A stretch of 64,000 nt of DNA, from positions 147,002,001 through 147,066,000 of the forward strand of contig OZ024743.1 in the NCBI GenBank assembly GCA_964016885.1. The letters are read 5' to 3'. This document shows, piece by piece, positions 5,284-64,000 of this stretch. The notes below the pieces were generated by a model that searched no databases, was not told where the DNA came from, and worked only from the letters and a program-made list of their open reading frames with translations. The stretch is from Eledone cirrhosa. Its lineage: Eukaryota. Position numbers and translations under genes: made by a program. Positions within the stretch are counted from its first letter, which is position 1. Each line of letters starts with the position of its first letter.

Positions 5284-7132
5284 TATTTGGAAACCATTCT
5301 CTACCGCAAAGTTCTAGACAAATACGGCAACCACTTCTACCAACACATAGAAAAAACTGGATGAGGTATCTGGACGACTGCTTCATCCTCTGGCATGAAA
5401 GTATAGATAGACTGTTTGAGTTTAAAACCCTCCTAAATTGACTCAACACAAACTTACAATTTACAATGGATTACAGCCATGAACAACTCCCTTTCCTCGA
5501 CATCCTCATCAAGAAAAAAAGCAACAAAATAGAAACAGACATATACTACAAACCCACAAACTCCAAACAATATCTTCCATTTAACTCGTGCCACCCTCGC
5601 CATACCAAAATGGTAATTCCTAATACCCTAGCCCGAAGGATCTGTACAATAGTTTCAGATAAATACACATGCTACACACGACTAGAAAAATTAAAGAACA
5701 CACTTATCAGCAGAAACTACCCACCATCCCTAATCAACAATGGATTCCAACGTGCCCTAAAACTCAACATCCAGGAACTCAGACACCCCAAACCCAGGAA
5801 TGAACCGCAACAGAAAACTCTACCATACATCTCCACATACAACCCCCTCAACAATGAGGCTTTCGACACCATCCTCCAGAACATTCCTTTACTAAAAAGA
5901 GATCCAAGAATGAACAAAATCCTCCAAACACATAACATCATAAAGAGCAAAAGGCAACCTAAATCCATAAAAAACATCCTCACACAAGCCAAAATCCAGC
6001 CAACCCTCACAATGAACCCTACAGTAAAAAGAAATGCGGAAGGCCCAACTGTGGTATATGCATAAATCTAATAGAAAGTTCAACATTCCATTTAAAACAA
6101 GGACAACATTTCACAGTTAAACACAACTTTACATGTGCATCTGAAAACCTAATCTATGTTCTAACCTGCTCAGGTTGTCAAGAGCACTACATAGGACAGA
6201 CAGAATACAGCCTCCGACAACGTATGACCGTCCATAGATCACAAATCAAAATACAGGAATACAGAAAGATTGCTTTTAGTGAACATATCGCCAATTGTAC
6301 ACCTAACCAACATCCAAACTTTAAAATTTTCCCCATTTACAAATTCATAGACAACGCTTCTTTCATCCATCGTACCAATAAGGAAACGTACTTCATTAAC
6401 AAATTCCAACCTCTACTTAGTGGACTAAAATTCGGACTATACTAAAACTGGAACGAACAATGAACCAAAACCAAATTCCTATGTTCTCTAAAGAGTTACC
6501 TCCCTCACACCCTACCTAATCCTTTTTCTTATATAAATGAATTACCCCCTCTCATTTCTCTCTCCCCTACCTGACCACCCTGAATTATCTCCCCCTGTAT
6601 ATTAACTCTCTAAAAAGGGAAATCACATCAAATCAAACTCCAGACTACCATTTGCCTCCATCATGGGTCAACTACGCACTCTTGCCATAATAACACATTT
6701 TGAACTGCTTATCCTCAAGTACTATGCTTGTAAATAATATTATTTTTTCTTTTCCATTACCTTATCATGTTCCACATTAACCCCTGTTTTTTCTTTTTTC
6801 TTTTCACTTCAAAAACCTTGTTTGTAAATAACATTACTCTTTCTTTCCCATTTCCTTAACATGTTCAACATCACCAACATTTTACACCAATACAAATTCC
6901 CCCCTTTGATAATGCATAAAATGCTGAAACCGGTAATAGACAATTATTAAATATATAAATAAATAAATAAATGCCATTGTTAATTAATAAATAAATTAAC
7001 TAATACCTTAACACTTCACACAAAGTAAAATATTTTGTTTTAAATATTTTCTAACCCAGAAAAAATAGAAAAAAATAAAAGGGAAAAAAAAAAATTCTTC
7101 TTCCTAATAATCGTCTTTTTCTCCATATTTTC

Positions 7133-13559: not shown

Positions 13560-13622
<63 letters not shown>

Positions 13623-13837
13623 AAAGTTAACTCGAGTTGAGTGTAATAGAATTCGTAGGAAAATGGGAAAACTCAGCGCAAAATGGGAAAACATCAAAAT
13701 GCCGCCAATGACGGCGTCGGATAAAAAGATTTACCCCAAAGGATAGAAATCAACGGCTAGAAGTGAATTCGCCCGGAAAAGTGATAGGAAGAAAGGAGAA
13801 AGGGATAAAATGGACGAGAGTAGATCACAAACATGCA

Positions 13838-13904
13838 CTCATCAGCTCTTAGACCACCTGTGGTTTTAACGATTTAAGTAAAAGTACCGCGTAAGACAGA
13901 TGGC
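13838..13904 (-). ncRNA. Non-circularly permuted hammerhead candidate, family C (G12A)
   Basis: gccatct..gcgg-ta-ctttta-linker-aaaa-ccac-aggtggt-c-taagag-ctgatga-g. It lies between ~530-bp-spaced direct repeats (13615 and 14147). Confidence 0.5.
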
Positions 13905-14445
13905 TTGTAACAACGGAGAAATATATATCTTTGTTGGGATAATGTTTGTGTCAGGAACGAATAGATTAGATAGGCAAGTCTGAGAGAGTGGCAAGTAGGA
14001 GAAGGGAGAAGGAAAGAAAAGAAGCAGTAAGAGGAAAGAGAGAAAAAGAACGAAAGAAAGGGGATTAAATTGATAGGAAAGAAACAGCCAACTAACCTCA
14101 AGCTTGGTATTCGTTCGAAATAGAAAGCTACAATAGCTGTGATAAAATATAAACAAAGTTAACTCGAACATGGAGTTTGAGGTGCGAGTGTATTAGAATT
14201 CATAGGCAAATGGGAAATCTCAGCACAAGGAAGCTGTTAAAACAGCAAAATGTTGTCATGGACTGCGTTGGGCAATATTTTTACCTCAAAGGAAAGAAAT
14301 CAGCAGTTAGAATTAAGTTGGCTCGAAGAAGATGGCTGACTGAATATACACGTTTGTTTTTTTTCTCCTCCATTTTGTTCCTTAATTTCCCTGTTACTTC
14401 CTTTTATCATTCTTTCCTTTCTATTTCTCTTCTTTTTCTAACTAT

Positions 14446-14480
14446 CGCCTGACGAAGGACTAGTGTCCGAAACGTTAAGA
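14446..14480 (+). ncRNA. Minimal PLE-type hammerhead, stem I decayed; same family as 45741-45774
   Basis: ctgacga-a-ggac tagt gtcc-gaaa-cg-tt-aag. Confidence 0.6.
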
Positions 14481-16393: not shown

Positions 16394-18674
16394 CAGTGGC
16401 GTAGCTAGGGTAAACGGCGCCCAGTGCAAGCATCAAAATTGCCCCCCCCCCCCCCCCATCCCCCATCAAAAAGTCAAGACCCACAAAGACGAAATTGCGG
16501 TAGAATTTATAATAAAAAAAAACAAAAAACGGTTACAACTTGATTTTTCGGGCTTTTAATGAGGCAAACTGGTTGATAATTTCCTCGAAATCAGTTCATT
16601 CAAACTCTTTGATTGATACACTCAAAAGGGCGAGGTCAGTCAGCCGTTGTTGGCCCATTGAGGTTCGCAAATACGAATAAATTAGCTTCAGCTTGCTGAA
16701 CGACTCTCGTAACTGGCAATTGAATAGAAATCGTCAACATTATTTGAATTCTGATTCGCAAATTGGGAAAAACACATTCATCGCTGTATTGTATGATGAA
16801 TTGGAGAAGTGCCTCCGGCTTTAAAATTGGATCAGCTGTCCTAGTAGCCAGCAAAGATCGACAGTCCAAGATTTCCTCATATAATTGCTCTTCGTCGATG
16901 TCGGAGTTGTATAGTTCCGCAAGACTGTTGCACCTTTGTTTAAGGATAAGGTTATCAGGAGCAACCAAATAAAACAGATAGTTGACATCAAGAAGAAAGC
17001 CAAAACTTGAGTCGGTTTCCTTAAGTCGAATAAACCGTTCTTCCATTTCTGTTTGAAAACGATTGAGTGAACTTTGCATTGCTCTCTCTATCTCTTTTCT
17101 AGCAGCCACCTCGACGTCCTCGGTAATTTCGGTATTGGTTTGTCGTCTTCCTCGCCTCCTCGGAAAATCGACATTCCATTTCTGGCAGAGGTAGAAGCCC
17201 ATTTCAAGAGACTCGTGGATTAAGGATGTTCCTTCTTCTTTAAAATAAAGTTGAAGGGCTCCTATATCAGCTGCAGCATCGTGAAAATTCATTCTTGGAT
17301 CTTGAAGTCTCTTTTGAATACGGTCAATTTGTGAGAGAATCGTGTTCCAGAATCCAATCAAGTTCAGGAATTCATAACTCAGTATCCGATTATGGAGATT
17401 ACTGGCATCACTTCTAATCTCGCATGTCTCTGTTTCATCACACTAATTTTTTCGAGAACTTGAACAATCAGTCAAACAATTCGCCACCGGTCTAACTGCG
17501 GTACATCTAGCACCCCACCGCGTGTCGGAAGGATATTTAACAACCACTGGAGCAACTCCTTTAAGGGCTTCCCATCGTCGTGTTGAACGAGAAAAAAAGT
17601 TGTATAACGAGTGAATGCAACTGAAAAAGTTCATCATAGCAGAATCGTTTTTGGCTGCATGAAGACCAGCCAGATTAAGTGAATGGTTATCGCAATTAGC
17701 GAAGTGAATCAAATTATTCTTCTCTCTCATTCTCTGCTGAACCCCACTGCGGTGCCCAGCCATTATGGCAGCATTGTCATAGCACTGCGATCGACAGTTC
17801 TGCAGTGGTAGGTCATCTTTTTCTAGCTCTTTCACGATTGTTTCAACAAGGCTTGCGACATCTTTTTTGATTACTTGAATGAATCCAAGAAAAGATTCTC
17901 TCACAACGACCGTCTTCATATTGAAATCAACATCAACATATCGCACAACTTTTGACAGTTGTTCTCGGTGCACCTGGTCAGGGGTCGAATCAATCAGCAG
18001 ACCATAGTATCTTGCTTTTTGGATACGATTTAGTAAATTCTGACGAACTGAATTATAGAAGAAAACATTGAACCACCCAAACTGGAGTCAAATTTAATTC
18101 CTAATAGAAGCTATCCGATCCTATCTGGCCATTTGGATTATGACACCTTTTCTATACGTCTTATGTACCAGTTGTAAAAGACAAACAACTCTGTTTTGTA
18201 AACCAGCTTCATAATTAGAGTGATCTTGTATTGGTCATTGCAATGCATTGCTAAAAATAGCGCCTGCGTGTCCACCAGTTGCACGTCCAAAACTACGTCC
18301 CTTCAGTCAATGTGTTTGTGGGGGGGGGGGGGGGGCACAAGTGAGGTATCCGCTGTTTTGCAATGTAAAGCTAAAAATAGCGCCCGCATAGTTGCAACCC
18401 ACCCTGCTGTCAATGTGGAGGGCGGGGGCGGGGGGGGGGGGGGGGGGGGGGGGGCGTTTTTGTGAAGTCAAATCAGACATCTGCTCTGTCTAGTGCACTA
18501 GACATGGCGTGGAAATCGGGTATCAAGAAATCACATGCTTCATTTTTGGCTTATATTTAAAAAAATGATAAAAACGACATGGATGTAAATCGATCTAGGT
18601 CGAAATTGCGCCCCCCCCTTAAATATGGTGCCCGTGGCATGTGCCCTGCTTGCCTCACCCTAGCTACGCCACGA
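16394..18674 (-). mobile_element. hAT DNA transposon with TIRs and a broken transposase (16570-18050)
   Basis: TIR gtggcgtagctagggt / accctagctacgccac. DSTPD..HREQLS.VVRYV, QCYDNAA.MAG..SGVQ, C.NHSLNL, TRW and FPNL..LT are hAT motifs. Frameshifted. Confidence 0.92.
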
Positions 18675-20551: not shown

Positions 20552-20601
20552 AATATATATATATTATATATATATATATAAATATATATATATTATATAT
20601 A

Positions 20602-22397
20602 TTGGTGCAGTAGCATCATTGTCAACTGCTACAAAGGTAAAGGCGATGCACTAGATAGAGGAAACTATAGAGGTATAAAGTTGATGGACCAGGTCATGAA
20701 AGTAACAGAAAGAGTTATAGCACAGCTGATTAGGGACCGGGTGAATATAGACGAGATGCAATTTGGGTTTGTACCAGGGAGAGGCACCACTGATGCCCTC
20801 TTCCTTGTGAGGCAATTACAGGAAAAGTACCTAGCTAAAAGTAAGCCACTCTACTTGGCATTTGTCGACCTTGAGAAAGCCTTTGACAGAGTTCCACGTG
20901 CAGTAATCTGGTGGGCTCTTAGAAAACTAGGAGTAGATGAATGGCTTGTGAAAGCGGTACAAGCCATGTATAGGGGAGCAGTCAGCAAAGTTAGGATTAG
21001 CAATGAGTATAGCGAGGAATTTAGCGTACAGGTTGGGGTCCACCAGGGCTCTGTTCTTAGCCCTCTCCTGTTCATCATAGTCCTGCAGGCAATAACGGAG
21101 GAGTTTAAGACCGGATGCCCATGGGAACTCCTGTATGCTGATGACCTCGCACTCATAGCTGAATCTATGGTAGAACTAGAGAATAAATTCCAAACCTGGA
21201 AGCAGGGACTAGAGAGAAAGGGCCTCAAAGTCAACATGACAAAGACTAAGGTCCTTGTAAGTAGACGAGAAAACAGAACCCAGATCCCCTCAGGGAAATG
21301 GCCTTGCTCAGTATGTAGGAAAGGTGTAGGTAGGAACTCCATTCTCTGCCCCAAATGCAAACAATGGGTACACAAGAGATGTAGCGGGATCTCAGGAAGC
21401 TTAATTAAGAATGTAGGATTCACATGCAGCAGCTGTGCTGAAACAGCAAGCAAACAGCCACAGGAAACAAGTACCACCAATCTCTGGGAGGGCCCTGTAG
21501 AAACAGTAGACAGCTTCTGCTACCTAGGTGACCGAATTAGCAACGGAGGTGGGTGCTCAGAAAGTACAATAACTAGGGTAAGAACGGGATGGAAGAAGTT
21601 TAGGGAACTACTACCACTGCTAGCTGCAAAAGGCTTCTCCCTCAGAATGAAAGGCAGACTGTATGATGCGTGTATCCAAACAGCGATGTTGCATGGTAGT
21701 GAGACCTGGGCGCTGAAGGTGGAAGACTTACGTAGATTAGAGAGAAACGAAGCCTGCATGCTCCGATGGATGTGTAACAGTAATATACGTGAACGACAAA
21801 GCATAAAGGAATTGAGAGAGAGACTGAGCATAAGAGGAATCAAATGCTGCGTGCAGGAGAGGCGGTTACGCTGGTATGGACATGTGATGCGTATGAAGGA
21901 TGACAGCTGCATAAAAAGGTGCAGAGCACTAGAAGTTGATGGAAACCGCGGAGTGGGGAGACCCAAGATGACTTGGGATGAGGTGATAAAAGCCGACCTT
22001 ACCCAACTACACCTCTCAAAGACAATGACACACGACCGTGACTTCTGGCGTCACGCAGTAATACAGGGTACCCGACCTCCCATGGGTACATGCTGAAGCA
22101 TATAAACAATATGCCCCCACTCCCCCCACCGCAAGGTGGTCGTGGAGGTGCCACGGCAAAAAAGCACCCAGCCCACACTGTAAAGTGGACGTGTAGGCGC
22201 CACGAAAAAGCACCCAGCACTCACTGTAAATGAGGTTGGTGTTAGGAAGGGCATCCAGCTGTAGAAATCAAGCCAGATCAGTTCCTGTATGAGCAAGGCA
22301 TGGTCAGCCGACCAGACACTACCCACAACAGGACAACCCGTCTAACCCATGCTAGCGTGGAAGAACGGACGTAAAACGATGATGATGATGATGATGA
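20602..22397 (+). mobile_element. 5'-truncated RTE-clade LINE with 3' UTR and (GAT)n tail
   Basis: RT ORF followed by a UTR shared with SINE tails and a gatgat tail, inserted in TA tracts. Confidence 0.95.
20603..22096 (+). CDS. RTE reverse transcriptase C-terminal part, uninterrupted, with internal Cys-rich insert
   Basis: NYRGIKL, QFGF.PGR.TTDA, FVDLEKAFD, GVHQGSVLSPLLF, YADD, LRWYGHV.R, GRP..TW. Confidence 0.93.
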   Translation, partial: WCSSIIVNCYKGKGDALDRGNYRGIKLMDQVMKVTERVIAQLIRDRVNIDEMQFGFVPGRGTTDALFLVRQLQEKYLAKSKPLYLAFVDLEKAFDRVPRAVIWWALRKLGVDEWLVKAVQAMYRGAVSKVRISNEYSEEFSVQVGVHQGSVLSPLLFIIVLQAITEEFKTGCPWELLYADDLALIAESMVELENKFQTWKQGLERKGLKVNMTKTKVLVSRRENRTQIPSGKWPCSVCRKGVGRNSILCPKCKQWVHKRCSGISGSLIKNVGFTCSSCAETASKQPQETSTTNLWEGPVETVDSFCYLGDRISNGGGCSESTITRVRTGWKKFRELLPLLAAKGFSLRMKGRLYDACIQTAMLHGSETWALKVEDLRRLERNEACMLRWMCNSNIRERQSIKELRERLSIRGIKCCVQERRLRWYGHVMRMKDDSCIKRCRALEVDGNRGVGRPKMTWDEVIKADLTQLHLSKTMTHDRDFWRHAVIQGTRPPMGTC

Positions 22398-22477: not shown

Positions 22478-22698
22478 TGTAATAAACAACATAAGACAAT
22501 TATTCCATTTACCAGAGGTTTCACGAAGACAGACGAGCTCAATAGAGACGTCTGAAATCGCTCATCAGAATGAAAATTTAATGAGAGTTTAAATTTTCAT
22601 TCTGATGAGCGATTTCAGACGTCTCTGTTGAGCTCGTCTGTCTTCGTGAAACCTCTGGTAAATGGAATAATTGTCTTATGTTGTTTATTACATAATTA
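22472..22698. repeat. Fold-back pLTR-like inverted repeat carrying a hammerhead on each strand (+22596-22666, -22504-22574)
   Basis: Stem I ttcatt/aatgga; ctgatga; long stem II; gaaa; cc tct gg; GUA site. Confidence 0.85.
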
Positions 22699-23724
22699 AA
22701 TAGCTCTGTAGCATACATAGAGCACTCTCCTTTCCTTTACCCTTCCTACGGAAATACTTCATATATATATATTTATATTTATATATTTAAATACTTCATA
22801 TATATATATTTATATATATATAAAAACTTAAGAAAATTAACAAAAAGAGGACAAGAAAACGAACAGAAACAAAACAAAATGAAAAACAATTTTTTAAGGG
22901 GAACCTTAAAAAATTATTTAAAAAAAAATACAAATAACGGACACAGAATGACATGGTCATCATGGTCATCAGCCGTTGAGATGAACTTTGGCAGTTTCAA
23001 CCCCTACCAACACTACTGCTGTTCCACCAGGGCTACAGTATCTGACATAAGCCAAATGCTGTTCAGTGGAATAAGAGATGAGAAACAAAACACATAGCAA
23101 TTTAGCTAAATACACATAAAATGGTTTGTGCTATGTCAGGGAAAATGTCTGGTGCCTCATATAGCACAAGAGACATGAATGAAACTAAGAAAAAGAGGAA
23201 GGAAAAATAAAGGAAGAAACAGCAATATATATATATGTATACATCCATGTGATGTTGCTGGACATGATAATGAGAACTCAATACCAAAGTGTGAGTTTAA
23301 TAATATTCTTTATTATGGATAAGTGATTAGCCTTGTTACTCTGTGGTTTCATATGTGTACTCATAGGATCCTCAGATAAGAATTGTGAAACTCCAGCACC
23401 AATAAAATTATAGGAACAGCTTTCCTTTCAAATATGTTATATTGAAACCACAACTGTACTCCAGTTTCATCATTTTCATTAGGGACTTCTTTTATTAATT
23501 TCTTTTATTAATTTTCTATTCTTTGTTAGGAACAATAACATTCCTAAGTCCATGTATATATTAATGCCTTGAGGCCTTCAGAATGAGAATAGTCATGCTA
23601 GTGGTATATTGATCATATGCTTAGTAGTGGTCATAAAGTATCATGGAGTAGTAGGAAATCATGGACGCCTGATTTCTCTATAGTTGAAGCATAGAAGTTA
23701 TAATTATTTTACATCAGTCTCAAC

Positions 23725-27757: not shown

Positions 27758-28626
27758 ATACATTTAAAGTGTACGATAAACACGAAATGTGTTTACATTG
27801 CAACAGACAAAGTTAGCTATTAATGAAATAAACTAATAAAAGTGAATACAATTTGTCTGTCTCGATATAAGTCAATAAAGACAATATTATATTGGCAACA
27901 GCCATGATTCCTGGACATATTTAAATTTCAAAATTCAAACCTGTTCTGTAGACGAATTTGAACCTCGAAACCCAAATAAGTTTCGCAACGGTGGAATGTG
28001 AATTGAAAAATAAAGAGAATCGAAATGGAATAGAAATAAAAGAGTGAAATACCCAAATCTTCTGTGCTTATCAACAGGAATCCAGTAAGATTAGTCTATC
28101 ACACATCAAAAATTTTGCAGGACTGACTACACGTGGGTAGGCAGGCCAAAACTAGCTATCCCACATTCACGGTGCTAGATAATCCTGCATAAGCGGCTGT
28201 TATTTCTAGCACCGTGAATGTGGGATAGCTAGTTTTGGCCTGCCTACCCACGTGTAGTCAGTCCTGCAAAATTTTTGATGTGTGATAGACTAATCTTACT
28301 GGATTCCTGTTGATAAGCACAGAAGATTTGGGTATTTCACTCTTTTATTTCTATTCCATTTCGATTCTCTTTATTTTTCAATTCACGTTCCACCGTTGCG
28401 AAACTTATTTGGGTTTCGAGGTTCAAATTCGTCTACAGAACAGGTTTGAATTTTGAAATTTAAATATGTCCAGGAATCATGGCTGTTGCCAATATAATAT
28501 TGTCTTTATTGACTTATATCGAGACAGACAAATTGTATTCACTTTTATTAGTTTATTTCATTAATAGCTAACTTTGTCTGTTGCAATGTAAACACATTTC
28601 GTGTTTATCGTACACTTTAAATGTAT
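27758..28626. repeat. Near-perfect 422-bp inverted repeat (25-bp spacer) with a large hammerhead in each arm
   Basis: Arms 27758-28179 and 28205-28626. A ~70-bp unique tail follows. Candidate TSD atatattaatagata at 27746 and 28698. Confidence 0.93.
28302..28478 (+). ncRNA. Expanded type I hammerhead, U3-A8 core (mirror copy at -27906-28082)
   Basis: Stem I gattcctg/caggaatc; ttgataa; gca/tgc; gaaa at 28400; long stem III; GUC at 28468-28470. Confidence 0.7.
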
Positions 28627-30962: not shown

Positions 30963-32318
30963 ATATTTGGTTTCATTCCTGGGAAAAATACTACAGATGC
31001 CCTCTTCTTTGTGAGGCAACTACAAGAGAAGTTCCCAGCCAAAAATAAACTACTATATTTAGCTTTTGTTGATCTAGTGAAGGCCTTTGGCAGAGTACCT
31101 TGATCTATTATTTGGTGGTCCTTAGGGAAATTAGATGTAGAAGAATGGTTTTTGAGAGCAGTGCAAGCTATATACAGAGGAGCTGTCAGTAAAGTGAGAG
31201 TAGGAAATGAGTTTAGTGAGGAATTCAAGGTATGAGTTCATCAGGGTTTAGTTATTAGCCCCCCTCTGTTCATCTTAATTCTTCAGGACATAACAGAGGC
31301 CATAAAATGGGCTGTCTATGGGAGCTTCTCAATGCAAATGATTTGGTCCACATAGTTGAAACGAAAAAAGAGCTAGGATATATATTCCGATTATGGAAAC
31401 TGAATTTGGAATCAAAAGGTCTGAGAGTAAACTTAACTAAAACTAAAGTGCTAGTGAGTAGGAGTGATGACAGGACCCAGGTTCCTTCAGGAAGGTGGCC
31501 ATGCTCAATATGCAGAAAAGGTGTAGGCATAATCTCCATACAATGTACAAAATGTAATTCTTGGGTACACAAAAGATGTAGTTGGATGATGAGTAGACTA
31601 ACAGGAAAGGAGTACATTGCTTGTAGAAGATGCACAGGAGAAATTGAGAAGAAGACTGCTAATGATATAAACCTTTGCCAGTCTCATGAAGAATCTATAG
31701 ACATGGTTGATACCTTCTGCTATCCAGGTGACCTAATTAGCAGCAGAGGAAGATGCACCAGAGTAAAATAGCTAGAATAAGGATAGGATAGAAGTTTAGA
31801 GAACTACTCCCACTGTTGACAACAAAAGTTTTCTCCCTATATAGAAAAGGAAGGGTGTGTGATACCTATGTGTGTGGTGTGCGATGCTGCATGGTAGTGA
31901 AACATGGGTTGTGACTGCAGAGGACATGCGTAGACTGGAGAGAAATGAAGCAACCATGTTTCGTTGGATGTGCAATGTAAATGTGTGAGAAAGGCAGAGA
32001 GAGCTGAGAGAGAAGCTAAGCGTAAGGGAAATCTGAGATAGTGTGCAGAAGAGAAGACTACATTGGTATGGACCTGTGACATGCATGGGCAATGACCGAT
32101 GGGTGAAGAAATGCCACGAAATCCTAGTGGAAGGAAACTACAAAACAGTATGACCAAGAAAGACCTGGGCAGAGGTTGTGAGAGCAGACCTCAAATCACT
32201 AAGACTGGTACAGGAGATGACGAAAGAATGCGATAAGTGGAGAGATGCTGTGTTGAGAAGGACCTGTCCAATCCATGCAAGCATGAAAAATAGACATACA
32301 AACGATGATGATGATGAT
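30963..32318 (+). mobile_element. Degenerate RTE LINE, related to the 20602 element
   Basis: Colinear RT motifs with stops and frameshifts, and a (GAT)n tail. Confidence 0.9.
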
Positions 32319-36205: not shown

Positions 36206-37352
36206 CCAAACATATTATGAAAAGGCCCAACACTACACACAACAGAAAATAATGAGAAACCTAAAATCCCTAACAACCCTTTACAAAGAAGGCCTTAAAG
36301 ACAAGGAATACAACTACACCAATTTCAAAAGCAGAACCAGCCTCTTCTACGGTATCCCCAAGACACACAAAAGCGAAGTAATAGGCCTGCAAGCAAGCCA
36401 CAGACGTTTACATCAATATAGCCCCTCCCGATGACCTTAAATTAAGACCCATAATAGCAGGCACCACATGTGAAACCCATCGCTTAAGCAACTTCCTAGA
36501 TATTCTGCTTAAACCTTTCCTAAAACATATAAAAAGCTTCATAAGAGACGACCTTGACATGTTCAACCACCTCCCAACAACACTCAACAACGAACATACC
36601 CTACTAGTAACCTTTGATGTCATCAATTTATATTCAAATATCCCACACAACCTAGGTATAGAGGCAATACAATTCTGGATGGAAAATTTCTCTAGTGAAC
36701 TTCCACAGCGCATCCCTAAAGAATTTGTGTTGGAGGGACTCAAATTCATCTTGGAAAACAATTTCTTCGAATTCAATGCCAAATACTACAGTCAGATATC
36801 TGGGACTGCCATGGGCACGAAAGTGGCCCCCTCATACGCCAACCTTGTCATGGGATATTTGGAAACCATTCTCTACCGCAAAGTTCTAGACAAATACGGC
36901 AACCACTTCTACCAACACATAGAAAAGAACTGGAAGAGATATCTGGACGACTGCTTCATCCTCTGGCATGAAAGTATAGATAGACTGTTTGAGTTCAAAA
37001 CCCTTCTGAATGAGCTCAACACTATTCACAATGGATTACAGCCATGAACAACTCTCTTTCCTCGACATCCTCATCAAGAAAACAAGCAACAAAATAGACA
37101 TATACTACAAACCCACAGACTCCAAACAATACCTTCAATTCAACTCATAGACAATAATTAAATATATAAATAGATAAATAAATGCCATTGTTAAATAATA
37201 AATAAATCAACTAATACCTTAACACTTCACACAAAGTAAAACATTTCGTTTTAATCATTTTCTAACCCAGAAAAGAGAGAGAGAGACACACACAAAAAGA
37301 GGAGAAAAAAAAATCTTTCTTCCTCATAATCGTCTCTTTCTCCCTGTTTTCA
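36203..37352 (+). mobile_element. Penelope-like RT fragment (same family as 5284) fused at 37146/37147 to the family's 3' terminus
   Basis: FYGIPKTHK, LRPIIAG, TFDV.NLYSNIP, QISGTAMGT..APSYANL, RYLDD. 37147-37352 matches 6936-7135. Confidence 0.92.
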
Positions 37353-37374
37353 TATATATATATATATATATATA

Positions 37375-39059
<1,685 letters not shown>

Positions 39060-39064
<5 letters not shown>

Positions 39065-39175
39065 AAGAGCTTCTACAGGACTAGAACTGTTTCATTCATG
39101 AGAAATCATCAGGGAGCGCTTCCTGATGATTTCTCACGAATGAAACAGTTCTAGTCCTGTAGAAGCTCTTCTATA
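39060..39175. ncRNA. Palindrome made of two back-to-back type I hammerheads (+39118-39166, -39069-39117)
   Basis: gcttc-ctgatga-t ttc tcac gaa t-gaaa-cag..ctg-ta-gaagc. Confidence 0.8.
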
Positions 39176-45442: not shown

Positions 45443-45740
45443 ACGCATATAAACAATGGCGTAGCATGGATAATTCTATACATTTGAATTTGAAATCCAT
45501 AACTCTGATGAACTATCCAGTACAGAGTCGATCCCGATCGTGACCGATCACACCCCCTGAGCTGATTGATTGCGAAATGCGTGTCAAGCGTGAATAAAAT
45601 ACGTATATGATGCTAAATTGATACTTCCTTCCCGCTTACTTATTATATATATACAAACAGTAAACGGAAACAACGAAGCAAACAACACAGTACAATGAAG
45701 AAATATATTAGTTCAACGCTTGATATAGTAGAAAAATAGT

Positions 45741-45774
45741 CTTTTCGTTTCGGACAGTAGTCCTTCATCAGAAG
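45741..45774 (-). ncRNA. Minimal PLE-type hammerhead, cleavage triplet mutated
   Basis: ctt-ctgatga-a-ggac tact gtcc-gaaa-cg-aa-aag. Confidence 0.6.
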
Positions 45775-49492: not shown

Positions 49493-50276
49493 AGTATGTA
49501 TGTATGTATACGTACATACATATATGTATACAGACGTACAGTAGTATGTATATATATACATACATGCACACATATATATATATATGCACGTATCGGTTTA
49601 AAGAACATTTATTATAATGCTCGGTTTGTTTGTAAACAAACAAACAGCCTGGAATACGCCGTACAGTGTTTAGGCAACCACGTCACCTTTTTGTTCAACA
49701 CTGACACAGGAACGATGTACTAGTTTCAAGCTTATTAGCTATCGTCAGCATCGTATACCTTCCTGCCAGATGGTTGAACGTCTGAAAGTATATACTTTCC
49801 TTATGCATATTAACGGCTGAGCAGCCTAATTTGCATATCGAGTGAGTTTAGTCGGCCAGGCGCACCGAAAACGATAAATGGAATAGAATGAAACTAAATT
49901 TCATTTCTCACGCTTAGTATGGCAGTTACTTAAATGTAAGTATGTATGTATGTATACATACATATATGTATACTGACGTACAGTAGTATGTATATATATA
50001 CATACATGCACATATATATATATGCACGTATCGGTTTACCGAACATTTATTATAATGCTCGGTTTGTTTGTAAACAAACAAACAGCCCGAATTACGCCGT
50101 ACAGTGTTTAGGCAACCACGTCACCTTTTTGCTCAACACTGATACAGGAAAGATGTACTAGTTTCAAGCTTATTAGCTATCGTCAGCATTGTATACCTTC
50201 CTGCCAGATGGCTGAAAGTCTGAAAGTATATACTTTCCTTATGCATATTAACGGCTGAGCAGCCTAATTTGCATAC
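49488..50276 (-). mobile_element. Retrozyme-like tandem element with a 438-bp period and minimal hammerheads at 49713-49753 and 50152-50191
   Basis: cgatg-ctgacga-t agct aata agct t-gaaa-ctag-ta-catcg in both repeats. Confidence 0.85.
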
Positions 50277-50600
50277 TTACATTTAAGTAACTGATGTACT
50301 AAGACAGAAATGAAATTTCGTTTCATTCACCGTATTAGACTAAACTGAATTAGTCTGTTAGTTGTGATTTTTTAAATCTGCGTTACCAGTGTAATGCTAA
50401 CACATTGGTCCAGCTAACCAAAATGTGGCTTCGTGTCCCATGTACATCAATACTCATACCTTTTTCCATTCAGAGGGCTTTTTCAAAAATCCCAACTAAC
50501 AAACTAATTATATTTAGTCTAATACGGCGTAAGCACATGTTACTACCTTATTTTCAATTTCGCTAGCCGTTTGTAAACAAAGCCTGCTTTGTGTCTCCCT

Positions 50601-60589: not shown

Positions 60590-61687
60590 AGAGGATATGG
60601 ATAACCACCATCACCCCAAACATAAACTACTGGTGGTTACTAACCGGTTTCCTCAATTTAGACGAGGACAACCTCATCTCAATAGGGAAGGCATCCGGCG
60701 ACGCGTTCAGTGGAACGAGCCTCGAAGTTCTGACCCAAATAAGGCCAGAACGCATCGCCCAAATCCCTGAGCGCGTCATGCTGGATGACCGTACCCACCT
60801 CAACATTATTGTGGAGGGTAGGCGTCCCTCCTGTTACCTCTGTGGCAATAGAGGTCACCTGAGGGCTGCCTGTCCCCAGCTCACACAGAAAAAAACACTG
60901 CTACCAACACCAACACCACCCCAACTACAACAACAAAAACAACCACAACAACAACAAAAACCAACAACCCCACCACCACCACCACCACAACAACAACAAC
61001 AACAAACACGTGAAAAAATAACACAGAATACTGTCCCACCCAATCCCTCCCCACCCAAAACAAATACAAAAACACGCACACCGCAAACACTACCAGAAAA
61101 CATACCCCTCCCACCCAACAAGGAAGACGAACCTCTTTCGTCGCAAGACGAAAAAGATCCCTTCCAACAAGTAAAAAGAAAGAAGAGGAGACGCACCACA
61201 GACACACATGTTAACTTTAACCCCCCCCCAAGAGAACACAAACTACACACAAACCACCCCTCCCTGTCACACAACACTAACTGCTACACAAAAAAAGACA
61301 TTACAATACACATACATGAACACAGACAACAAAGAATTACGGAAAACAATTTCAGCAAACCCTTCGGTCCAAACCGAAGGGCCAAACTTTATAACTGCTG
61401 TGGGACTACCTCATTTGAAAATGATAAAAGTCCCAATGCACTTGTACAAAACACTGAAAATAAATTTCACGGAGGACGTGGGCCCCCCCTGCGCCAAACC
61501 AATCAACCGCGTCCTCCTAAAAAATTTCACCCCCCCACCTCACCCAGACACCCACTCAACGACAAACACCCCAACCCCACAACACACCGATGCCCCTTCA
61601 CTTCCACAAACCACAACCCCACCCAACAACCCATCCCCAACCAGCATGGAAATTGAGCGGCCCGTTTCCCGGGACGCAGAGAGGTAA
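60590..61687 (+). CDS. Tx1/L1-type LINE ORF1 (gag-like), 5'-truncated and probably frameshifted near 61220
   Basis: IIVEGRRPSCYLCGNRGHLRAACP zinc knuckle, Pro/Gln-rich linker and basic KRKKRRR. Confidence 0.75.
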
Positions 61688-61711
61688 GTGCCTTTTCTCT
61701 TTACCACCAAC

Positions 61712-64000
61712 ATGGCTGTGCTAAGAGTAGGGTGTCTAAATGCGCGTGGCCTGGGCTCGTCTTGGAAGCAAGCAATGCTTCTAAATGACCTCAGGTCACA
61801 ATCTATAAATGTGATGGTTATCTGCGAGGCCCGGATCAGCAGCATGCGACAGCTAGCCCCCACCTTTGACGACTTTGAGATGCACGCATCTCTCTGTCAG
61901 CCCGGAGGTGGGGGTGGGGTTGTCGTTCTGCTGCAAAAACATATGGGCCTTGCAACACAGATAGTTCACTTGGACCCAGGGGGTCGACTGGTGGTGCTGG
62001 ACCTTGGCAGTGGTGAAGGTAGAGCCTTTAGGCTGATAGCCGCATATGCCCCTTTTGGGACAGAGCGGCCCGACTTTTTCCAGCGTCTGGAGTCTTTTCT
62101 AGGGACGTCCCGTTCCCTGCTTTTAGTGGGGGATTGGAATGGTATCCTGGATGCACGTTGGGACTATGCAGGGGCATGTCCCGATAGAGAGGGGTGCAAC
62201 AGCCTCAAGGGGTTACTCGGCCGATTTGACCTGGCCGATAGATTTCGACTAGATTTTCCGACGGTGCCAACCTGGTCTTGGTCAAATCGCAGCGGATCAT
62301 CTAGATCGTACCTAGATAGATTTTTAGTTAGAAATAAGGACAGGGACTTTTTAAGTTGTCCAGAAATGCTCATGGTTGGCTATTCAGACCACAAGTTGGT
62401 GACCTGCATGGTCAACCTTGATAGAACGCATAGACAGGGCCCCGGTTACTGGAAGCTCAACTTGTCCTTGCCGGCAAGTAGAGCCTACAGGAATCGGATT
62501 AGTACGTTAGTTAAGGAACGGTTGACTGGAGCGATCGTCAACAGCAGGTGGTGGGTATCTCTAAAGAGAGAGATTAGAGTAGTCTCGATTGAATTTAGTA
62601 AGGTTCTAGCTGCGGATAGGAATAGGAAGGAAAGGGAGCTAATAGATAGAGTAGAAGAGGCAATTAGAAGCGGCGACGTGGCCAGAGTGCTAGCGTCGAG
62701 AACGGCTTTGAGCCAGTTTTTCGACGCGAAGCACGAAGGCTGCGTTGTCCGAAGTAAAATACGTGCTCTAGGGAACGAGGGGGCCAAAGCTGTTAGCTGG
62801 GCCCGCGTGACAGAGGCCAACAGTGGAACTAAATCCACCATCCGGTCTTTGCGAGACCTGGATGGACGGGCGATTCTTGAGCCTAAGCAGATGTGTGAGG
62901 CCTTTCAAAGGCACTTTGCCCGACTGTTCGGGAGGGGCGGGGAGCCGGTTGGAAACGTGGACTTCGGTCCATACCTCGACGGCCTGCCGCGCCTCTCGGA
63001 CAGGGAGGCGAAGTCTTGCGAGGAGCCGATTTCGGCCGCTGAGATAGAGGACGTGCTGGGCCAATGCGGCAAACGCAAATCCCCGGGTCTCGATGGTCTT
63101 CCTTACGAATTATATCTAGCTATGCCGGACTTGTTCCCCGATCTCCTCGAGGCGGTCTACTGCAACTGGCAACAGAACGGGAGAATTCCCTGTACTGTGA
63201 CCAAGGGCGTAGTCACGCTAGTGAGGAAGGACGAGAACAAGGGGGACGAAATAAGTAACTTCAGGCCCATAACTCTGCTAAATACAGAGTTACAGATTTT
63301 GGCCAAAGTGCTAGCAAAGAGGTTGGCGCTTGTCGTGGGCAACCTGGTGGGAGATGCGCAGACATGCGCTATCCCGTCCAGGTCCATCCATGACAACCTC
63401 CACCTCATGCGATACATCATAGAGAGGGTTGGGAACGAACCCGGCTTTGGTGGGGCTCTGATCAACTTGGATCAATCTAAGGCGTTCGATAGGGTCGACC
63501 ATGGTTACCTGGATGCGGTGCTAGCGGCGGCAGGCTTCGGACCCGTTTTCAGGGGCTGGATCACTGCTATGCACAGCAGCCGCATCTGCTCTAGGGTCAA
63601 GGTGAACGGCTACCTCTCGGAGCCGTTCAAAATCGCGCGGTCCATCCGACAAGGGTGCCCTCTCTCCTCCCTTCTGTATGTGTTGACTCTCGAGCCACTA
63701 CTGCGGAAGTTGGAGTTGTTGCAGGGCATCCCTTTGGAACCGGGATTGCGGAAAGCGGTGTCAGCCTACGCCGATGATGTGACAGTAATGGTGTCGACGG
63801 CCTCCGAAATCGAGGCGGTCGGCACCTTACTGGAGGAGTACGAAAAGTTCACAGGGGCTAAGCTGAACCGGGACAAGTCGATCGGTTTGCAACTCGGCAC
63901 GTGGAGGGGCAGACCGATGCCTTCCGATGGCGTCGTCGGACGCTGGACGGAGGGCCCGGTGAAGTTGCTCGGGGTCTGGTTCGGACCGGACCTCCAGGTG
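61712..64000 (+). CDS. Tx1/L1-type LINE ORF2 (APE endonuclease plus RT), apparently open to the window end
   Basis: MAVLRVGCLNARGL, YAP, GDWN, YLDRF, SDH, PGYWKLN, KSPGLDG, FRPITLLN, DQSKAFDRV, QGCPLS, and YADD at 63767 in frame with the ATG. Confidence 0.92.
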   Translation, partial: MAVLRVGCLNARGLGSSWKQAMLLNDLRSQSINVMVICEARISSMRQLAPTFDDFEMHASLCQPGGGGGVVVLLQKHMGLATQIVHLDPGGRLVVLDLGSGEGRAFRLIAAYAPFGTERPDFFQRLESFLGTSRSLLLVGDWNGILDARWDYAGACPDREGCNSLKGLLGRFDLADRFRLDFPTVPTWSWSNRSGSSRSYLDRFLVRNKDRDFLSCPEMLMVGYSDHKLVTCMVNLDRTHRQGPGYWKLNLSLPASRAYRNRISTLVKERLTGAIVNSRWWVSLKREIRVVSIEFSKVLAADRNRKERELIDRVEEAIRSGDVARVLASRTALSQFFDAKHEGCVVRSKIRALGNEGAKAVSWARVTEANSGTKSTIRSLRDLDGRAILEPKQMCEAFQRHFARLFGRGGEPVGNVDFGPYLDGLPRLSDREAKSCEEPISAAEIEDVLGQCGKRKSPGLDGLPYELYLAMPDLFPDLLEAVYCNWQQNGRIPCTVTKGVVTLVRKDENKGDEISNFRPITLLNTELQILAKVLAKRLALVVGNLVGDAQTCAIPSRSIHDNLHLMRYIIERVGNEPGFGGALINLDQSKAFDRVDHGYLDAVLAAAGFGPVFRGWITAMHSSRICSRVKVNGYLSEPFKIARSIRQGCPLSSLLYVLTLEPLLRKLELLQGIPLEPGLRKAVSAYADDVTVMVSTASEIEAVGTLLEEYEKFTGAKLNRDKSIGLQLGTWRGRPMPSDGVVGRWTEGPVKLLGVWFGPDLQV

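Follow-up and report, generated by a model that had tools for sequence, protein, structure and literature searches.

The family C insertion and its surroundings

The window (the whole 64,000-nt stretch of DNA analysed) is rich in (TA)n and carries, on its minus strand at 13620..14331, an insertion of a repeat family that we call C. The insertion has no ORF. It begins with ~185 nt from the 3' end of the element, after which comes one unit with an internal deletion; this partial tandem spans 1.3 units, and its 3' end abuts a (TA)n microsatellite (13566..13619). This microsatellite is the likely insertion target, given the (TA)n preference of Naiad elements described in PMC8557442. The upstream copy of the 3' end, a pLTR-like repeat (14147..14331, minus), and the 3' end of the unit, terminating in the (TA)n target (13615..13781, minus), form direct repeats that are 72% identical and lie 532 apart. 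An earlier note on this DNA had placed these repeats at the termini of a ~530-bp unit. The repeats stand, but the terminal (LTR-like) reading was rejected, as copies are partial tandems with variable 5' ends, and the family unit exceeds 532 by ~100 nt, a length that the window copy has lost at 13986/13987.

Read 5' to 3' on the minus strand, the motif within this insertion begins with the distal part of the 5' strand of a closing helix, c (13942..13950, pairing with 13826-13834), and a hairpin, P0 (13911..13936, with two mismatches). Strand a follows (13905..13908), a putative displaced stem II strand that pairs with 13869-13872 and reads ACGA in most copies and ACAA here, and then strand b (13898..13904, pairing with 13853-13859), previously described as a bracketing helix. 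Block S (13878..13890) comprises a stem III strand, U16.1 (13886), A17 (13885) and a stem I strand, with the predicted cut between 13885 and 13884. The TTAAA linker, a', position 11.1, block G and the second stem III strand occupy 13860..13877; b', stem I' and the CUGAUGA core lie at 13839..13859 (core at 13839-13845), and strand c' at 13826..13838, with a 7-nt deletion between 13835 and 13834.

The earlier note had read a permuted hammerhead topology from 13904 to 13838 on the minus strand, and the family alignment, pairing counts and shuffles described below bear it out. Its quoted letters matched the window on re-reading, as did its stem I (6/6 paired, one G-U) and its stem III with one mismatch (3/4 paired). 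The blocks that it identified were right, but its fold was incomplete, comprising neither stem II and the upstream stem II strand nor hairpin P0 nor the closing helix c. It was also correct in regarding this copy as probably dead: AAAA replaces GAAA (G12 is A at 13867, where 25/31 family rows have G), so that the copy lacks an intact CUGANGA plus GAAA core, and 11.1 is U (C in 17/31 family rows). Together with mismatches in I, III, a and P0 and the 7-nt deletion in c', these changes make it very likely that the window copy has decayed beyond ribozyme activity.

A pairing scan of the window returned five S-G-C candidates: the 13904(-) copy itself, 37969(-), 38931(+), 22972(-) and 22602, the last a palindromic false match. 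Two young families account for 37969 and 38931. Family A is present at 37405..38140 (minus) as two tandem motif copies (~37405-37540 and ~37940-38070), each with point defects, and family B at 38279..39002 (plus) as a 624-bp partial tandem in which the first motif has lost its 5' part and begins at C-GAAA, immediately behind (TA)n. By sequence comparison, the copy at 22960..23070 (minus) has the same architecture and belongs to family J. Two window candidates, at 49748/50186 and at 22602, depart from the architecture; around the former, 49600-50300 (minus) is a 438-bp tandem repeat in which CTGACGA is followed ~14 nt on by GAAA, an arrangement that does not match. No Rfam hammerhead was found in the 64-kb window among the best 150 of 289 rows, which held only microsatellite-driven miRNA-type matches, and no Rfam model reached its gathering score in six motif loci, a silence to be expected on the assumption that the hammerhead models cover other block orders.

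The surrounding DNA holds many other mobile sequences. Ordinary minimal type I hammerheads lie at 14449-14480 (plus), back to back with the family C insertion, and at 45740-45771 (minus), both with pyrimidine-rich tracts upstream, like the pLTRs of canonical Penelope-like elements. We take the ORF fragments at 5442-6442 and 36385-37044 (both plus; RT thumb plus C-terminal GIY-YIG, and RT core) to be canonical Penelope-like element (PLE) remnants, and those at 20582-22093, 31259-31768 and 60592-64000 (all plus) to be LINE-like, presumably comprising RTE-like RT pieces, an ORF1, and an endonuclease/RT ORF that runs off the window end. Two fragments at 16639-18087 (minus) are presumably hAT-like transposase remnants. 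A perfect 422-bp inverted repeat (27758-28626) and two short palindromic elements (22540-22630 and 39070-39170) are MITE-like.

Repeat families and covariation

A 181-nt query from family C gave at least 40 scored matches among 397 candidates, the window copy and 39 others at 79-84% identity, and judged by this divergence C is an old repeat family. Its alignment has 31 rows, to which 30 loci contribute one each and L016 a second; a partial copy in L025 was dropped, and L026 was left out as unparsed when copies were parsed. G12 is G in 25 rows and A in six, and the AAA that follows it is present in 31/31, so the GAAA that the earlier note had expected of a consensus is there. U16.1 is kept in 30/31 rows, residue 17 is A in 16 and C in 15 but never G, position 11.1 is C in 17, U in 13 and G in one, and every CUGAUGA column is conserved in at least 27/31. 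Stem I pairs hold in 26-31/31 rows and stem III pairs in 24-30/31, which agrees with the stem I complementarity and repaired stem III that had been anticipated for the family; helices a and b each hold in 23-31/31. CUGANGA and GAAA are both kept in 19/29 parsed copies, and the cut site is GUA or GUC in most copies. The proximal c helix fails in one subfamily (12/31 and 17/31 at two pairs), and in the L137 subfamily stem I and stem III have each changed on both sides. Most departures are CpG-type decay rather than compensatory change, and family C by itself therefore yields little covariation. We rejected a stem II formed between the TTAAAT linker and a downstream ATTTAA, a pairing that is absent from other families and, in the register for which pairs were counted, holds in 0/29 and 3/30 rows at two pairs; on sequence comparison, a/a' and c/c' are the preferred account of the linker region.

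Across the 3-Gb source genome, a pattern of the linker, GAAA and CUGAYGAG alone found 3505 matches against three for the reversed pattern, and a second one, in which the base after the core may not be G, found 1213 against 20 control matches. From subsets of the first 100 matches listed per pattern we distinguish about ten families (A, B, C, C2, D, E, F, G, H and J, plus one K copy). Candidate copies number 2503 for family A and 2056 for family B, and since copies within each are 97-98% identical, both families are young. Unit lengths are 536 (A), 624 (B), ~505 (E) and ~750-790 (H); all families examined are short and ORF-less, mostly end in (TA)n, and include tandem and inverted copies.

From family to family the sequence of each helix changes but its pairing is kept. 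Across 11 representatives of families A, B, D, E and F, 95.3% of cells are paired, and 19 of 31 pairs have changed on both sides, among them five of six in stem I, two of five in stem III, five of six in helix b and two of five in helix a (putative stem II), the weakest at 85.5% paired. None of 500 shuffles reached the covariation score, a test that related sequences can pass without structure, and slid registers pair at 27-48%. When the 70 nt upstream were dinucleotide-shuffled in 13 family representatives, only 0-2 of 2000 versions reached the observed pairing. In D, E and C2 the upstream partners predicted blind by the G and C blocks were present, and partners predicted from the downstream blocks were also located in families G, H and J. 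Every family has U16.1 and a residue 17 other than G, even though the search pattern never forced them. A strict parser of the full architecture fits 11 of 17 representatives and fails on the other six, against 0 of 150 shuffles for each.

As an outside control, 115 metagenome matches listed for a similar pattern included one with stems I and III in S-G-C order, none with strand a and none with the full architecture; in the same test on 39 source-genome loci, where overlapping loci repeat some rows, stems I and III were present in 24 and strand a in 23. One metagenome contig (L264:1918-2030, plus) has an S-G-C-like match with a 6-bp stem I and a 3-bp stem III, a single sequence in which the post-core strand could pair upstream. 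At locus L110 (1440-1570, minus), hammerhead cores recur in tandem at short intervals and stem II is palindromic, which may indicate a dimeric type I array.

The earlier note had treated the sequence differences between families as independent support for the fold. The same fold recurs in all of them, but A, B, C and their relatives share a TTAA-type linker, a P0 ending in TTG and the same spacing. They are therefore probably homologous, and their agreement counts as covariation rather than as independent origins.

Fold, 5' junctions and Naiad tails

In 5' to 3' order, the common architecture is c, hairpin P0, a, b, a stem III strand, the UH site, a stem I strand, a linker of 2-5 nt, a', GAAA, the second stem III strand, b', stem I', CUGAUGA and c'. 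The hammerhead core, the UH site and core-proximal stems I, II and III occur across families; a' pairs with an upstream strand rather than one downstream of CUGAUGA, and the strand after CUGAUGA pairs with c. From these pairings we infer that a/a' is stem II, and the simplest reading of the sequences would be that the backbone is open between A9 and 10.1, where c and P0, stacked into one helix, cross it, the two probably forming a four-way junction at that step. By analogy with the tertiary helix of the published type SGC ribozymes, b would join the outer ends of stems I and II.

The register at 11.1 differs among families. Families G, H and J have A, U or C directly after the core, a base that pairs with the terminus of c, and their strand a opens with a G facing C11.1. 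Family A mostly has U at 11.1; A2 has an upstream A opposite U11.1. For families A, B, C, D and E the register is ambiguous because either the post-core G or the upstream G could take 11.1. The b and III helices are separated by a 0x3 bulge in G and a 7x0 bulge in C, and by a 3x6 internal loop in A/B; b is 9-10 bp long in family G, and the links that join it to the outer ends of stems I and II measure 0-2 nt in most families, 3 nt in D and 6 nt in H. In nested folds of several copies, the b+III hairpin forms and the strands for I and II are free. From A-form lengths we estimate that b spans 20-25 Å; in the hammerhead geometry, the outer ends of stems I and II would by our estimate lie ~40 Å apart.

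The 5' ends of the repeats offer a possible trace of activity. On the reverse strand of A/B copies, 377 (TA)n-joined 5' ends fall in the 31 nt before GAAA, against 46 and 78 in flanking 31-nt segments before b and before CUGAUGA; the three junction anchors differ in subfamily coverage. Junction density among the loci listed shows a roughly threefold contrast (0.137 against 0.044 and 0.043 loci/Mb). Of 20 A/B junctions listed, which include two pairs of adjacent inverted copies, 17 lie 1-9 nt before GAAA, one at the cut and two upstream; the family B copy at 38279 in the window also starts 1-9 nt before GAAA. Read by eye, 7/36 G/H rows start 3-9 nt before GAAA and four in the ~65 nt upstream of the cut, some of these G/H junctions not being TA. 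Other A/B junctions are spread evenly along the unit, in a set where overlapping loci repeat some rows.

Two A/B copies (L179 and L102) start exactly at the predicted cut, but the junction peak lies 5-15 nt past it, and reverse-transcriptase stalling on a' or TA microhomology could therefore contribute. The 5' truncations fit templates that end at the cut and are trimmed to microhomology; they also fit a stall on a docked a' helix. The peak supports folding in vivo more firmly than it supports cleavage.

Several features connect these repeats to Naiads. Insertion into (TA)n, 5' truncation, partial tandems and inverted 5' copies are described for Naiads in PMC8557442, and the repeats share the (TA)n target, 5' truncation, partial tandems and inverted copies. 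The same paper reports no canonical hammerhead in Naiads and a hammerhead 'half core' in eight cases. In its File S5, a look-up of the word CUGAYGA, which covered unbroken words of this core variant, located the motif in at least four of the 54 Naiad consensi. Read by eye, the tails of Naiad_Obim, Naiad_Ovul, Naiad_Plae and Naiad-4_Dst have the same layout (the latter two names follow from record order, these being the records before Naiad_Dcar and Naiad_Ppla), and two of the four carry the authors' 'HHR_half_core' flag. In the Plae and Dst4 tails, c, P0 and a abut without gaps and the sequence of each helix differs; P0 of the repeats and of the octopus Naiad tails has an 11-nt stretch in common. 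On the strength of the resemblance to these octopus tails, the source is a presumed cephalopod. Several other consensi in the file show different arrangements round CUGAYGA. Among them, nematode Naiads (Nbra, Hpol region) have GAAA 40-50 nt after CUGAYGA and apparent long stems, which may be another unrecognised hammerhead layout.

No Naiad ORF (N-terminal GIY-YIG, CxC, DKA, RT) was found beside the motif in the source-genome loci fetched, and tblastn returned nothing; patterns drawn from the Ovul tail found, for an autonomous partner in the source genome, zero matches and one unrelated match. One narrow pattern located four Naiad-like ORF loci in the source genome, all broken. A decayed Naiad lineage is represented there by ~40 copies at 67-87% identity (L146, L147 and L149-L173), with no recognisable motif in 18 aligned 3' ends; its 3' UTR may hold another fold. 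As partial tandems that have no ORF and terminate in (TA)n, the repeats are likely non-autonomous Naiad derivatives.

Interpretation and comparison with known systems

We interpret the window motif as a decayed copy of a high-copy, ORF-less and likely helper-dependent Naiad-type repeat with a hammerhead in S-G-C order that is predicted to self-cleave, a reading to which we assign a probability of about 0.8. Tandem copies would be transcribed through, and the predicted hammerhead would cut the transcripts to unit length. The unit-length RNA would perhaps be ligated into circles, as in retrozymes (PMC7229834), before a Naiad endonuclease/reverse transcriptase primed internally and copied it into (TA)n. 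Since copies run through the cut site and beyond one unit, a circular, uncut or jumped template would be needed.

Because b is nearly continuous with III and spans 20-25 Å rather than ~40 Å, we favour docking between two copies, with A-form length estimates as the sole basis for this step: each copy would fold as a b+III hairpin, and the base strands a and I'-CUGAUGA of one would dock on the loop of another. We put the need for two copies at about even odds with a strained fold in cis. More tentatively, and with somewhat less than an even chance, the repeats would represent an obligate two-copy ribozyme in which stem II, I' and CUGAUGA, presented from the four-way junction, cut the partner's hairpin loop, a ribozyme hidden in the Naiads of molluscs, acanthocephalans and crustaceans and driving the ~ten families as 'Naiad retrozymes'. 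If two-copy docking holds, tandem transcripts would be cut and single circles left intact. The same ribozyme could also act in cis, as a monomeric multi-pseudoknot in which b is bent at its bulge or opened and distal stem III is frayed, an alternative to which we give somewhat less than an even chance. Published type SGC single-motif constructs cleave during transcription, and in a few predicted members the corresponding link is 0 nt long (PMC10085705). The 3x6 internal loop of A/B and the 6-nt b'-I' link of H would provide slack, and threading is possible because c' is transcribed last. Against this, b in family G joins III through only a 0x3 bulge and stems I and II through links of 0-1 nt, and the family C bulge is 7x0; b, spanning 20-25 Å, would have to bridge ~40 Å on the geometry given above, and its covariation at 5/6 pairs indicates that it is not dispensable.

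The remaining alternatives concern whether the motif cuts at all and which enzyme moves it. That the ribozyme-bearing repeats are moved by canonical Penelope or Neptune elements, or by some other reverse transcriptase, with the Naiad likeness convergent or borrowed, is unlikely, although canonical PLE fragments are common in the window (5442-6442 and 36385-37044), Neptune PLEs reportedly target microsatellites too, and the young A and B families (97-98% identical) contrast with the decayed Naiad ORFs. The full architecture and the 11-nt P0 stretch are present in octopus Naiad tails, whereas the window's canonical PLEs have ordinary type I hammerheads (14449, 45771), and a young Naiad could have escaped a search by one narrow pattern with four matches. 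Less probable still is a non-cutting tail for protein recognition or priming by the Naiad reverse transcriptase, with the hammerhead letters as relics: in several copies stems I and II do not form in nested MFE folds, and the junction peak is off the cut, but stems I, II and III covary round an invariant core and UH site in ~ten families and in Naiads of three phyla, and a tail that served for binding alone would not need U16.1-A15.1 to be kept or G17 to be excluded. Chance resemblance or an assembly artefact deserves almost no weight. AT-rich, repeat-rich DNA does yield many short helices, and a loose scan gave the palindromic false match at 22602, but the thousands of dispersed copies, near-zero controls and covariation refute both.

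The S-G-C order itself has already been published. Type SGC (HRIMA-1 and a variant) was named, and its cleavage validated, by Eckert et al. 2023 (PMC10085705), a paper that draws type SGC from metatranscriptomes, with none in genomes of known organisms, assumes block C to be uninterruptible, and flags a related steric problem. As in type SGC, the repeats have a short link between stems I and II, of 3-5 nt in the families parsed, and a helix joining the outer ends of those stems. They differ in that stem II and tertiary-helix strands lie 5' of S, where type SGC has its stem II strand directly after CUGAnGA, and in that block C is split at A9/10.1 by c and P0; lacking an uninterrupted block C, they are a variant of type SGC rather than strict members. 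The hosts also differ, being environmental for type SGC and an animal-type genome with thousands of copies here. What our data add is the host, the number of copies, the division of the C block and the connection with Naiads; a search of the non-subscription literature found no description of a split-C S-G-C fold.

The 2023 account of non-circularly permuted hammerheads drew on environmental sequence only, without host biology. The role of the predicted ribozyme is now testable, because thousands of copies sit inside mobile elements of an animal-type genome. Searches for three intact blocks would miss the fold, since block C is interrupted, which offers a possible answer to the apparent absence of hammerheads from Naiads compared with other Penelope-like elements; the fold also accounts for some of the 'HHR_half_core' flags. 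With the Naiad clade (Craig et al. 2021, PMC8557442) the repeats have the (TA)n target, 5' truncation and partial tandems in common, but they are 505-790 bp long and have no endonuclease/RT ORF, and that paper does not describe their fold.

Retrozymes are likewise short, non-coding tandem units with one hammerhead each. Animal non-LTR retrozymes have been argued to be non-autonomous PLE derivatives, and some of their hammerheads work better as dimers (PMC7229834; bioRxiv 10.64898/2026.07.22.740005). Their hammerheads are type I, with ~170-400-nt RNAs and circular RNA shown (Cervera and de la Pena 2020; Li et al.), whereas the repeats have longer units and, in their S-G-C order, a non-circular permutation rather than a type I hammerhead. 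A look-up of sequencing runs for the repeats listed three contig sets of one study and no RNA run. For the split itself, the nearest precedent is the CChMVd (+) hammerhead, whose A9/G10.1 step tolerates insertion and naturally holds one extra residue (PMC3705267), at the point where the repeats would accommodate a two-helix branch.
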